A DNA stretch of 64,000 bases from Bdellovibrionales bacterium. Lineage in GTDB: Bacteria > Bdellovibrionota > Bdellovibrionia > Bdellovibrionales > UBA1609. Made by a program: the position numbers and the translations under genes. Position 1 is the stretch's first letter. Every line of letters begins with the position of its first letter. The stretch lies in contig OZ241329.1 of the NCBI GenBank assembly GCA_965199825.1, positions 1-64,000 on the forward strand, read 5' to 3'. Of this stretch, positions 34,839 to 38,592 are shown in pieces. The notes under the pieces are model-generated. The model had not been told where the DNA came from, ran no database searches, and saw only the letters and a program-made list of their open reading frames with translations.

Positions 34839-36059
34839 TCAGTGCGGAATTGAGCTTACCAAGACATCGTAAACACCGGCTTGATAAACTGGATCTTTAA
34901 AACAAGTTCCTTTAGCAGTGAGCACGTCGGTGACGGTGACGCGAGTCTGGCCATAAAGCGATTTGCAGCTTAAACAATTTAAGTTTGTAGAAGTACAAAA
35001 TGCTCTGGCACTTTGGCGTTGGCAGTAACCGAGGTTTACCAATCCATGTGCTTGGAGAATAGCGCTCCCCATAGTGTAGGACGAGACAACTCCCCCACCG
35101 GGTTGAATGGTGCCCGAGCTAGACGTGAGCGAAGTATCATATGCTCCTTGTGCACAATAAAAATTGGTAAAGTTTTGGCAAGCCGAGGTGGTATTGCCAT
35201 CACAACTTTTTTGCAGCCCTTGAAGGCACTGCGAAGAATTGAGCATGGGTTGACCAATGCCGACTCGTTGTAAACACACAGGACCAGAAAGTGCGATGGT
35301 TGCACCGTTAACCGATGCGGTTGAGAGCGCACTTTTAGAAAGTGTGGTGAGTCCTGTTGCAGCGGTCTGGGTGGTTGGTGCTGTTGCTGTTGGTGCGGTG
35401 TATCCCGAAGGGGTTACTGCAACATCGGATGTTGGTGTTGCGGCATTTGGAGCTGTGGGATTTATTATTCTTGGTTGAGTGGGAGTGGGCGTTGTTGTGG
35501 ACGAATCTTGAGAACTTGATGACGAGCCGAATGCTTTCGACAGATTTTGAACCGCAGCAGAACCCATTTGGGCGATCATCATATTTGAAATTTCGCCGCC
35601 GGTTTCGCTCGCATTGATTGTTCCAAGAGTGTTGCAATAGGTAAGAAGACGGGTCGCCTCAGCTAAATTTTTGGTTTGGGCTGCCACGAGTGCCGGTTGA
35701 GGTGGGGCCGGCAGAGGAGCACTGATTGTCGCTTTCGAAGCGGTACACACAGATACGCATTGTCCTTTGATCGCTTGAAATTGGGCAAGCTGTGCGGCTC
35801 CTGCTGATTTTCCTGCACTTGCCAGAGCCCCAAGCTCACCCGAGCTTCCACTTATACTATTTGCCGCGCGATATTGGGCGGCGACACTTTCACTGTTGCC
35901 AAATCGCACCGCCAAGTACTGGTTGTACCCCGTGCTAATTGTTTTGTAACAGTTGTTGAGAGCAGCCGTAGCGTTGGGCTGTGCTGCATCCATGTTTGGA
36001 GGCAATGCCATCGGAATGTATTCGATAGCAAAAGCTAGAGATAAAAATAGTAAGACCAC
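34839..36059 (-). CDS. Secreted Cys-rich protein with a Ser/Thr/Pro linker
   Basis: Signal peptide; two Cys-rich regions separated by low-complexity S/T/P sequence. Confidence 0.75.
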   Translation of the reverse strand: MVLLFLSLAFAIEYIPMALPPNMDAAQPNATAALNNCYKTISTGYNQYLAVRFGNSESVAAQYRAANSISGSSGELGALASAGKSAGAAQLAQFQAIKGQCVSVCTASKATISAPLPAPPQPALVAAQTKNLAEATRLLTYCNTLGTINASETGGEISNMMIAQMGSAAVQNLSKAFGSSSSSQDSSTTTPTPTQPRIINPTAPNAATPTSDVAVTPSGYTAPTATAPTTQTAATGLTTLSKSALSTASVNGATIALSGPVCLQRVGIGQPMLNSSQCLQGLQKSCDGNTTSACQNFTNFYCAQGAYDTSLTSSSGTIQPGGGVVSSYTMGSAILQAHGLVNLGYCQRQSARAFCTSTNLNCLSCKSLYGQTRVTVTDVLTAKGTCFKDPVYQAGVYDVLVSSIPH

Positions 36060-36183
36060 ATCTAAAGTGTATCAGCTTCTCGAGATTGCTAAAATTGAAT
36101 CTCATTTTGGGCCAAGCTTTGGTCGCATAAGGATTGTGGTTGACCAAAAGCCGCCGAGTGATTAATTTTTGGCGCTTCTCCCT

Positions 36184-36269
36184 GCACGCGTGGCGAAATG
36201 GCAGACGCACTACCTTGAGGTGGTAGCGCTCGAAAGGGCATGGTGGTTCAAGTCCACTCGCGTGCACCA
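36184..36269 (+). tRNA. tRNA-Leu (anticodon GAG)
   Basis: Acceptor stem GCACGCG/CGCGTGC, TTGAGGT anticodon loop, long variable arm, GTTCAA T-loop, encoded CCA. Confidence 0.96.
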
Positions 36270-36327
36270 ATTTTAAAAATTACGGTTCGCACAAGCCCGC
36301 GTATGCGACTTCGTAAATGCGCTCACA
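36261..36327 (+). repeat. Copy 1 of a degenerate direct repeat (tRNA 3' end plus trailer)
   Basis: 36278-36327 matches 37693-37742 at 39/50 positions, ungapped; similarity extends to CGTG(C/G)ACCAA. Confidence 0.75.
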
Positions 36328-36411
36328 TTAAAGTTTAAAAGATTTGCATGTTTTGTTGCAACGTCATCAACAGAGTTGTGATTGCGAATTTCGGTATTGT
36401 CGCATCTCAAA

Positions 36412-37218
36412 TCAATGTCGATGATGGGCACGATGATGACCCGAACACAAAATCGTCAGATTCTCGATTTCATCTGTACCACCCTGTGATTTTGGATGTT
36501 GATGATGGATATCAAGATGTCTTTGCTGCGTGCATCTTTCACCATTTTCATCGATGTGGGTACATTGACTGTTGTGTTGCTGATGGAGCTTACGGTTGAT
36601 TGTGAGTTTCGAAGAGCTTTTGGGCGGGCACGATTTTTTGAGCGGATCCATTTTCTTAAGTAATAGTTGTGTTGCGTGATCGTGCACATCTTGGATGGTA
36701 GCAGCGCGTTTTAGTTTTTGACTTAAAAGATCTTGGGCTCTTTGAATCTCTTTAAATTTATCTTCGCTCACCGCATAAGTGATTTGGATCAAGGTTGTTT
36801 CGCCCACCTGTTTGTATCGTGCCCGCTCAGGGATTGCTTTTTCGGGATGCGCCTTTGCAATTTGTTTTTCTAAATTTCTTTTTGTGCCCTTGGCATGTTC
36901 GCACCATTCAAGCACATTTTCTGGAGTGATAATACTTGCGATGCGGTTAATTTTAGAAACAGAAAGTTCGCCCGTTTCCATTTGAGTTTTAAGTTCAGGA
37001 ACTTCAGTAAATTTCTTGGCGAGTTTATTAAAGATGCTTGCAAGCTCTTCTGACATTTTGAGTTGCTTTGTCGAGTATTGAAAAAGCGAATGACAGCCAA
37101 ATTCGTAATAACTTTTGTTGCGCCACACTTGCTCTAAAGCATTCAGCAATTCCATTTCGGTTTTGCGATGGTTCTTTGCTGCGATCACTGCGGTCTCGTG
37201 AATTTTTTGGTGGCTCAT
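36412..37218 (-). CDS. HNH endonuclease with a DUF222-like helical N-terminal region
   Basis: N-terminal GCHSLFQYS...L.MSE and GELSVSK; C-terminal C-x9-C...HHQHPKSQGG...NLTILCSGHH; AGGAG RBS. Confidence 0.88.
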   Translation of the reverse strand: MSHQKIHETAVIAAKNHRKTEMELLNALEQVWRNKSYYEFGCHSLFQYSTKQLKMSEELASIFNKLAKKFTEVPELKTQMETGELSVSKINRIASIITPENVLEWCEHAKGTKRNLEKQIAKAHPEKAIPERARYKQVGETTLIQITYAVSEDKFKEIQRAQDLLSQKLKRAATIQDVHDHATQLLLKKMDPLKKSCPPKSSSKLTINRKLHQQHNSQCTHIDENGERCTQQRHLDIHHQHPKSQGGTDEIENLTILCSGHHRAHHRH

Positions 37219-37428
37219 TAAATATCTCCTATTTACTGAGTTAAATATAACATGAGTTTTTTTAAGAGCATTTTTGATGGGGCTCGTCTGGTTGTGGAGA
37301 TCAAGTTTTTGCCGAAGTGTTTGGCTTAAGGTGCGTTTGTGAAGTGAATGTGCTTCAAAAAAGAATCGGATGTTTTCAAAAACAAGACCTTGGGCATTTT
37401 AAGCCACCTAAATTTGCGTCAATTTTTT

Positions 37429-37445
37429 TTTTGGGCGGGCACGAT
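37429..37445. repeat. 17-bp repeat TTTTGGGCGGGCACGAT, identical to 36618-36634 inside the HNH gene
   Basis: Exact match; the core GCGGGCACGAT also occurs at 38032-38042 and, inverted, at 36816-36826. Confidence 0.85.
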
Positions 37446-37677
37446 AATTTATCAATCCAAATAATGGCCACAACAAATTTCTAGTTCCCACGCCGTGGGT
37501 CCAATCCCACTCACTACTGTAGACTTCTTTTTTCGCAAGGATTGCTAAAACGAGAGGCGATTTCCTCTATGATCAAACGTAGGCTTGCCAGCTGAGTTAA
37601 ATCAACTTTGACACCATTCCATCGCAACAATACCGTTATAACTGCTTGCATCTAGCATTTCACCTGCTTGTACGTTA

Positions 37678-37742
37678 CGTGGACCAACTTAGAATTACGG
37701 TTTGCACAACACTGAGTATGCAACTTTGTATGTGCTCTCAAA
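37678..37742 (+). repeat. Copy 2 of the degenerate direct repeat (att-like)
   Basis: CGTGGACCAACTTAGAATTACGGTTTGCACAAC... versus CGTGCACCAATTTTAAAAATTACGGTTCGCACAAG... Confidence 0.7.
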
Positions 37743-37768
37743 ACAACGAATAAAACAATTTTTAAATT

Positions 37769-38217
37769 CTAATGGTTGCGAGGCTCAGACCCACGAGCAA
37801 AAAGTTTATCTTTTTTTAGAAAAGCATTGATACCCCTTACGTAGGGATTCCAAAGTCATCGCTCAGCTTCATCGGGTTTGATGGTCTTTTCCATTTTCAT
37901 AACCGCATCATCATAGTTTCCAGCCAATGCAGTGCTTTGACCGCTATGCCATACGAGAAGATCCCATTGCCATTTTTAGAGCACATTGAGGTGACGAGAT
38001 GTGTAAGCATCAAGAAGTTCACGAACAAGTTGCGGGCACGATTGATACTTTCGCCAGCCGCCGCTTGGAAGTGATTGATCAAACGAATCAAAATCAAATT
38101 GAGTAATTCCACTTGCTCTGACTTTGAAATTTGGCATGACTCATGGTTCGAAATATCCTGTCTTATGGCCGTGTGCGAACAGGCGTTAAGAAGAAAAATA
38201 TTTAACAATAAAAACAT
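37769..38217 (-). pseudogene. Disrupted lipoprotein gene
   Basis: LNAC lipobox; frameshift near 38095 into DFDSFDQSLPSGGWR; in-frame TAA near 37977; second shift near 37858 into WNPYVRGINAFLKKD. Confidence 0.7.
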
Positions 38218-38253: not shown

Positions 38254-38592
38254 TTATTTTTTAGTTTTAGTCTTTTGATAGCGCTCAAGTAAACGCGATC
38301 CCTTCTCTGCAAGTTTTTTTGCAGCCGCCATTGTTTTTGGAACAGCCTCACCCCAGGCATGTGCCGAAAGTGCAAGTCGTGTTGGGTTGCCGTCTTTGTC
38401 TTTCATTGGTCCACGTGGGTTTGCAAAATGCCTGCGCAAAAAAGAACCTTTGCGACGCATTTTTTCTGGCGTGTCGGCTTTGCCCGTCACACCGGGTTTT
38501 AGATTTGCGCCCGTTTTCTTTTTAAATTCTTTGCGACCCGCTTCGGTGAGACCGCCTTTAGGATTTTTTGTCTGCTTCTTTTTTGTAGCCAT
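38254..38592 (-). CDS. Small basic DUF6321-like protein
   Basis: KNPKGGLTEAGR...RRKGSF...GPMKDKDGNPTRLAL...W; family name from recall. Confidence 0.7.
   Translation of the reverse strand: MATKKKQTKNPKGGLTEAGRKEFKKKTGANLKPGVTGKADTPEKMRRKGSFLRRHFANPRGPMKDKDGNPTRLALSAHAWGEAVPKTMAAAKKLAEKGSRLLERYQKTKTKK

Follow-up and report, generated by a model that had tools for sequence, protein, structure and literature searches.

A self-marked multicopy HNH nuclease cassette in a genome of the Bdellovibrionales

Repeated HNH genes of the DUF222 type have been annotated for 25 years, and we know of no mechanism worked out for them. Homing enzymes stay at one locus, and their cut site is missing from their own allele. 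Repeated genes of the REP13E12/DUF222-HNH kind occur in Mycobacterium and other Actinomycetota. One source counts REP13E12/HNH/DUF222 sequences among repetitive elements (PMC10589994). Three other sources describe small phage Zn-HNH enzymes as nicking DNA (PMC3592412), give Noc a binding site (NBS) of 16 bp with a CCCGGG centre (10.1101/2022.02.28.481274), and report about 1.3–1.8 copies per replicon for RAYTs, which are HUH/Y1 enzymes (10.1101/119735). Here we analyse a 64,000-nucleotide (nt) stretch of a Bdellovibrionales genome (the window; GenBank assembly GCA_965199825.1, contig OZ241329.1, positions 1 to 64,000), in which a gene for a 268-residue HNH protein lies next to a tRNA-Leu gene. 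An original prediction, made from the letters alone, described a lone, tRNA-anchored, integrase-less DUF222-like HNH element with a repeated DNA motif of its own. The gene is part of an undescribed self-marked cassette, which is akin to the known, unexplained repeated HNH genes of the DUF222/REP13E12 type.

The gene is not alone. A tblastn search located the family at 28 loci on the same 2.78-Mb contig, of which 27 begin at residue 1 and one is a C-terminal fragment; the 27 loci other than that of the window share 46–97% amino acid identity with the window protein. Twenty-four of 27 copies are intact, and 4 of the 28 loci are broken. The copies are placed at unrelated sites, in every orientation to the neighbour genes, and the 28 dispersed loci share a common plan: one or more motif units, a TTGAC box, a fixed spacer, an extended -10 box, and a gene with three motifs. 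The minimal unit without a recombinase that had been proposed is supported, and it is multicopy. In the window, blastn against the three closest copies delimits the unit to 36412/36414–37450(61), with 87–96% identity. The unit ends are ragged, with the upstream motif on one side and the point just past the last motif and stop codon on the other. Unlike a classical insertion sequence (IS), the window unit has no terminal inverted pair at its ends. A long flanking repeat is absent in 26 of 27 copies, and a general target-site duplication, as judged from long repeats, was rejected. In a quick version of the tree, built without copies c06, c26 and c27 and without the c28 fragment, the 24 intact copies form one clade, separate from the clades of the relatives G036, G034, G035, G015 and G040 (SH-aLRT 100). 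The copies are under strong purifying selection: the ratio of non-synonymous to synonymous substitution rates (dN/dS) is 0.07–0.16 in the 13 pairs listed, the closest pair included, and the median dS over intact pairs is 1.9.

The motif that marks the cassette has the consensus RTCGTGCCCRC and the core TCGTGCCC. This core occurs 522 times in the genome, as compared with about 49 occurrences expected from base composition. Of these sites, 151 are upstream in gene orientation and 1 in the opposite one, 72 are in the genes, 10 downstream, and 288 elsewhere. The upstream motif is present in 27 of 27 copies, with 1 to 27 units per copy. The 17-bp repeat reported earlier is exact; one occurrence is in the linker (KKSCPP) and the other 211 nt upstream of the ATG. 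The earlier description lacked two more in-gene motif copies as well as the leader boxes (Table 1). The terminal His-Arg-Ala-His motif is found in 25 of 26 copies. The linker motif is found in 23 of 25, forward in 13 (Ser-Cys-Pro) and reversed in 10 (Gly-Thr); none has both exactly, two have neither, and in copy c08 a degenerate forward half is separated by 12 nt from an exact reverse one. Whichever way it points, a single linker site is maintained, even though this changes the encoded residues. Among 58 conserved multi-codon residues, codon fixation is highest for R263 (100%), A264 (96%) and R134 (91%). Since the synonymous codons of the motif are fixed despite the high median dS, the motif is selected as DNA. 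It is probably the site bound by the cassette's own protein. In this genome the motif is a half-site and not a hairpin; depletion of CCCGGG was rejected as the cause of the half-sites (ratio 0.9).

Of the 288 sites located elsewhere, 192 fall into nine tandem arrays, each with 11–39 exact cores and none with an HNH gene. Nine upstream regions and the orphan arrays have a second word, ACAYCKYCGGAR, in common (15 of 18 sites), which ties these arrays to the left end of the cassette. The arrays lie on the main contig of this genome (G000:C1) at 246215, 484407, 751490, 808694, 953722, 1355538, 1538418, 1575780 and 1618395. Each is built from locus-specific units of about 16–25 nt that surround the HNH motif, and variant units occur in runs. 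One is located between murE/murF-side genes and mraY, and another directly upstream of a RAYT gene. Their interpretation as excision scars was rejected because, among the arrays listed, the terminal codons of the gene are missing at the 3' sides. The units that separate the upstream motifs of the cassettes arose by locus-specific duplication and measure 18 to about 130 nt. A CRISPR- or TIGR-like array was rejected as well: the motif units are local duplications, and blastn of the longer spacers in the genome led to other copies or short chance matches. On the gene strand, G and T prevail over the upstream arrays of this genome, about 350–150 nt before TTGAC (GC skew reaching +0.39), and A and C prevail in the latter half of the leader (reaching -0.43). 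Both skews are weak in relatives; they could be a repair footprint.

The leader consists of a TTGAC(A/G) box accompanied by a T tract, the spacer, and an A tract with a TGnTAnnnT box. Among the 27 copies examined, all 25 with both boxes have them 168–171 nt apart. The canonical -35/-10 distance by the same measure is 20 (sigma-70 consensus). An alignment of 21 non-redundant spacers is nearly gap-free at a mean identity of 38%. Genome-wide, 20 box pairs were found at 168–171 and none at the canonical 19–20; no leader without a gene, as a solo or non-autonomous form, was found in the genome, and a promoter scan of 36100–37900 revealed no canonical promoter. In other genomes and in metagenomes, 73 upstream regions remained after 6 of 79 rows had been dropped as duplicates; the spacing is 166–171 in 43, 174–177 in 7 and 186–190 in 10, and other 6-nt distance windows hold at most 4. 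The pattern used here had been widened after G034 was seen; a stricter one gives 26 in the first class and 6 in the last. A collapsed form with canonical spacing was rejected, given its absence genome-wide and a single pair at 19–21 among these 73 regions. The classes span 31 of 39 samples, including Myxococcota genes that are only 21–25% identical, so that the spacing of the boxes is kept from Bdellovibrionota to Myxococcota without conservation of sequence or RNA structure. Read as sigma-70 boxes, they are split by about 147–151 or 166–170 extra bp, that is ~14 and 16 helical turns; the 174–177 class does not match this whole-turn reading. Phasing of A tracts at 10.5 bp was rejected (weak autocorrelation peak, at 13–14), as was dyad symmetry of the spacer, for which there was a weak compositional signal only (0.317 versus a median of 0.268). 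In several homologues, namely L051, L057 and L058 (G034), L041 (G040) and L060 (G009), heptamer simple repeats were seen in or close to the interval from the -10 box to the start codon; they are possibly a means of phase variation.

Homologues are patchy among relatives. Twenty of 40 relative genomes have matches, several of them 20–50 (matches, not copy numbers), and the other 20 have none; at E<=1e-30 the family counts 659 representatives. In the quick tree the copies of each genome form a clade of their own, with the exception of G030, which has three unrelated copies. Many relatives possess 14–20-bp palindromes in the linker or gene end that are repeated in the flanks; these are lineage-specific, often with a variable centre. 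A word of at least 14 nt is shared by a gene and its own flank at 32 of 99 loci, versus 32 of 589 GC-matched cross pairs, and own pairs exceed cross pairs in 30 of 42 genomes or samples, the samples not being independent. The motif as a 12-mer has 275 sites in this genome versus 0, 3, 0 and 0 in four others; the motif of G035 has 56 sites and that of G015 has 8, each versus 0 in four others. The pairing of gene-internal and upstream motifs, which the original prediction had put up for testing in homologues, is general in this genome and recurs in relatives with different, genome-specific words; in several Bdellovibrionota groups it is missing at word level. At L033 (G036), the linker palindrome has three self-complementary centres within one genome (CCGG, GCGC and TTAA), and where the centre is GCGC, at one locus only, the upstream copy is centred on GCGC as well. 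Close to the predicted origin of this genome are two parS-like 14-mers (G000:C1, 964356 and 964919), and a DnaA-box cluster there (973170–973250) coincides with the GC-skew minimum (972 kb). Myxococcota cassette palindromes are one base per arm off this parS-like word.

The sole Pfam match over cut-off on the window protein is HNH (residues 228–267), and HNH (PF01844) is present in 23 of 23 homologues. The zinc and catalytic residues were rightly considered intact (C219/C229/C258/H261, H239, N253 and H262/H266) and are invariant in the 23 homologues. The protein is predicted to comprise a helical helix-turn-helix (HTH) domain at about 17–125, a ribbon-helix-helix (RHH) domain at about 142–198, a linker, and a Zn-HNH domain at 208–268 (predicted model with pLDDT 79 and pTM 0.46). 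In the model, the helical domain aligns to the DNA-binding domains of KorB, ParB and Spo0J (Z 6.9, 6.6, 6.0 and 5.5); ParB-family chains make up four of the top five, and the KorB alignment (Z 6.9, thus under 8) covers 96 residues at a root-mean-square deviation of 3.2. The RHH matches MazE, TraM and NikR types (Z 4.3–5.3), and the HNH resembles those of IscB, McrA and Gme (Z 4.7–5.1). From this model we infer a ParB/KorB-like HTH at the N-terminus and a protein that would dimerise via its RHH. The palindromes of relatives resemble the NBS of Noc and parS. In contrast to ParB, Noc and KorB, the cassette protein is without the CTPase N-terminal domain (ParBc has no Pfam match on the window protein, and there is no room for it before the helical domain) and is fused to an RHH and a nuclease; also, the sites of the cassette are in and around its own gene, as half-sites in this genome.

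Similarity to REP13E12/DUF222-HNH genes consists in dispersed, multicopy lone genes with a helical N-terminus, a C-terminal HNH and no transposase. The DUF222-like N-terminus that had been postulated could not be verified directly: Pfam DUF222 (PF02720) matches neither the window protein nor any of its 23 close and 16 more distant homologues, and has no match elsewhere in the genome. The link is made by intermediates, namely open reading frames (ORFs) of G040 and G032 to which both the Pfam DUF222 model and the cassette-family profile match. On G040:C18, DUF222 scores 30.9 bits, over the cut-off, and the family profile matches the RHH-HNH part of the same frame; on G032:C18, DUF222 reaches 23.4 bits, under the cut-off, with an overlapping N-terminus. 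In the Atlas neighbour cluster, DUF222 is found on 12% of members. At DUF222-positive loci of the same order, the spacing is 168–169 or 186–189 in 9 of the 13 with an HNH frame found, this frame being missed in 12 of 26 by the pattern used. The cassette protein differs from REP13E12/DUF222 proteins in being shorter, and five complete Acidimicrobiia DUF222 genes have neither the fixed-spacing leader nor a self-motif upstream. No paper on this cassette architecture was found by listings and abstract starts, with subscription journals mostly uncovered.

Table 1. Coordinates of the window copy of the cassette and of adjoining features
Feature	Position	Strand	Remarks
tRNA-Leu(GAG)	36184..36269	+	neighbour, outside the repeated unit
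Proximal copy of the degenerate 65-bp duplication (about 9 nt from the tRNA end, then trailer)	36261..36325	+	this site only
Repeated unit (upstream motif, fixed-length leader, HNH gene)	36412..37450	-	blastn against the three closest copies
268-aa HNH gene	36412..37218	-	converges on tRNA-Leu(GAG)
Motif core TCGTGCCC in the last HNH codons (His-Arg-Ala-His)	36426..36433	-	about 15–20 nt from the right end of the unit
Linker motif copy (17-mer)	36618..36634 (core 36626–36633)	-	encodes Ser-Cys-Pro
Reversed motif copy, Arg-Ala-Arg codons between HTH and RHH	36817..36824	+	in 18 of 25 copies
Ribosome-binding site AGGAG	37226..37230	-	from sequence; present in the other copies inspected
Extended -10-like box TGnTAnnnT, behind an A tract	37244..37252	-	kept in 25 of 27 copies
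Fixed-length spacer	37253..37416	-	nearly gapless, with positioned T and A tracts
-35-like box TTGACG	37417..37422	-	170 nt from the TG in the -10 box
Upstream motif copy	37429..37445 (core 37437–37444)	-	left end of the window copy
Distal copy of the 65-bp duplication, 77% identical	37678..37740	+	about 230 nt outside the repeated unit

The tRNA-Leu gene does lie beside the HNH gene, and no integrase or transposase ORF is present between the 65-bp repeats, in agreement with the original prediction. The bracketing duplication is also real (50 of 65 positions identical; score 54 versus a maximum of 32 in 300 random windows); the tRNA 3' end, which it had been thought to duplicate, is hardly included, as only ~9 nt of the tRNA lie within the repeat and the remainder is trailer. 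The genome holds no third copy of this repeat, and flanking duplication is confined to the window copy (other copies score at most 26). Anchoring to tRNA genes does not hold for the family, since only 2 of 27 copies have a tRNA within 400 bp. Fifteen genomes belonging to the same family contributed 16 tRNA-Leu(GAG) loci, none of which carries a homologue; seven are beside queA, as in the window, and three have less than 900 nt of downstream sequence. Synteny and vertical inheritance at this locus, together with a lack of motif pairing in homologues, had been named as grounds for giving up the original prediction, and it stands on this count because relatives show no synteny of the gene with tRNA-Leu(GAG). 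The tRNA and the duplication appear to be a local accident of the window site, with the tRNA as an incidental neighbour. At 77% identity, the duplication looks older than the split of the window copy from its closest relatives, and is possibly a separate earlier event at tRNA-Leu. Elsewhere in the window, a DUF6321 gene (E 1e-31) is located at 38254–38592, 0.8 kb past the cassette, and a secreted-looking 406-aa ORF at 34839–36059 has no Pfam match over cut-off.

Several explanations compete for these data. The family may have spread long ago and since been domesticated: the host would now retain it as a nuclease for site-specific chromosome binding or for defence, comparable to Noc or RAYT, that loads at the arrays. 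Strong selection (dN/dS about 0.08 even for the closest copies), the lack of identical copies and of phage or plasmid matches, and a lean towards the origin half of the chromosome make us open to such a domesticated role, to which we assign a low probability. The lean is seen for 21 of 28 copies (Kolmogorov–Smirnov p 0.001, uniform null) and 8 of 9 orphan arrays (p 0.02), but not for the RAYT genes (10 of 17, p 0.84). The patchy distribution among relatives, the separate expansion and separate motif of each genome, the four broken loci, and the lack of any match of defence-system models to the cassette beyond the HNH stretch all argue against it. RAYT systems themselves are among the closest known parallels: short repeats of its own lie on either side of a nuclease gene, such repeats also stand alone in the chromosome, and the system persists for long under purifying selection. 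They differ in that here the HNH gene itself is multicopy and the repeat is written into codons; no HUH (Y1_Tnp) domain is present on the cassette protein or its 23 homologues. This genome has a Y1_Tnp (RAYT-like) family of its own at 17 loci of G000:C1, for example L009 (247156) and L003 (1558056), whose genes repeat the cassette plan of an oriented repeated motif and a nuclease gene; their upstream half-site TGACANTGCCC has 49 sites versus 2 for the reversed control. The cassette could be a passenger, copied in trans by an HUH transposase (RAYT/IS200-like) or within IS ends, with the HNH protein only favouring retention. Fourteen of the 17 Y1_Tnp genes have TGACANTGCCC upstream, this repeat shares TGCCC with the HNH motif, and one orphan array adjoins a RAYT gene. 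Nevertheless, we consider the passenger explanation improbable: TCGTGCCC is near only 1 of 17 RAYTs, the motif forms no hairpin here and changes with the HNH lineage, and neither IS ends nor a transposase were seen beside the copies inspected. A reverse transcriptase route was rejected, the sole reverse transcriptase being on the small contig C2 (L191, a 1291-aa open frame). Contig C5 contains long frames with a helicase-like P-loop; C2 and C5 resemble mobile DNA of eukaryotes that was binned along with this genome.

Guidance by RNA from the upstream region had also been suggested, which would make the protein an OMEGA-like nuclease with its guide or scaffold encoded there. Like IscB, the cassette has a related Zn-HNH domain behind a non-coding leader, whose length is conserved, and IscB (NF040563) is the best NCBIfam model for the HNH stretch, to which its match is restricted (30.4 bits versus a cut-off of 175). 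The cassette protein, however, has 268 residues and no RuvC. Folding energies of 44 leaders gave mean z values of -0.3 and +0.05 on the two strands; covariation was 0.16 versus 0.15–0.18 in the permuted null, and the RNAalifold energy was about 0. The interval 37219–37700 has a folding z of 0.64, and no Rfam family was found. Spacers between motifs, being local duplications, gave no convincing matches elsewhere in the genome. A guide RNA is therefore highly improbable, and we give equally little credence to a remnant of a tRNA-targeting integrative element that has lost its integrase. Such an element would fit the real 65-bp duplication that brackets the gene, and may account for the duplication itself as an older, separate event. 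It disagrees with the ~9 nt of tRNA in the repeat, with a flanking duplication at 1 of 27 copies, with unit ends located 87 and about 230 nt inside the repeats, and with the homologue-free tRNA-Leu(GAG) loci of relatives; the cassette has no integrase, no restored tRNA 3' part and no family-wide duplication.

That the cassette is a self-recognising multicopy unit we regard as likely. Our preferred reading goes further and is held with less confidence, though we still think it probable: a slowly spreading, integrase-free selfish cassette, with a protein that recognises the cassette's tag and makes nicks close to it. The protein, dimerised by the RHH, would bind the cassette motif with its ParB/KorB-like HTH, as a half-site here and as a parS/NBS-like palindrome of 14–20 bp in relatives, and the Zn-HNH domain would nick DNA near the bound sites. 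Host repair of these nicks might sometimes copy the unit to other intergenic positions, leaving ragged ends without a duplicated target, and amplify single sites locally into tandem arrays; for this nick-and-copy route we see the chances as evenly balanced. The leader, with its fixed geometry, would serve as a control region under which the nuclease is almost silent, and the gene would be driven from the -10 box. As in homing endonucleases and phage Zn-HNH enzymes, a small HNH gene without a recombinase would presumably act via host repair; in contrast to homing enzymes, the cassette carries its presumed site at least four times and is spread over 28 loci. More tentatively, and with considerable doubt, we consider a new class of autonomous element, which would combine an HNH nickase with a parS-type domain, a self-written recognition site in codons and at both ends, co-divergence of site and protein, and a split sigma-70 promoter that fires only with the spacer looped, wrapped or removed.

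A number of observations weigh against the selfish cassette. There are no identical copies, the closest being 96% identical with dS 0.14–0.21, and hence no recent movement. Neither an empty site nor an excision junction was seen, and no joint that skips the unit was present among the joints listed for four sequencing runs, two of which may be source samples, in a search over contigs. Neither the 50,697 phage records nor the 72,556 plasmid records searched gave a match, and purifying selection on resident copies fits a host function too. All fold Z-scores are under 8, and Foldseek returned nothing at E<=0.001. Word-level pairing is missing in several relatives, including the JBFWYS group (own 9.6 versus cross 9.8) and most loci of G036 and G034. 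The fixed leader is absent from the examined copies of G040, a genome with 22 matches, and from 2 of 27 copies here; in G040 and in copies c25 and c27 its place is taken by a short leader of ordinary appearance, so that multicopy status does not everywhere depend on the long one.

On a nearly complete chromosome, the cassette provides a testable system for a class of repeated nuclease genes that has long lacked an explanation, with a predicted site, defined unit ends, variants of site and protein across two phyla, a control region of fixed geometry, and one 268-aa protein in a cassette of 1 kb. If the two boxes form one looped promoter, its geometry is one that we have not met in the literature, in which no search aimed at split promoters was made. 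If the cassette moves by itself, it would spread without a transposase, integrase or reverse transcriptase, and the 659 representatives would make up a compact natural family of site-specific nickases with many specificities.

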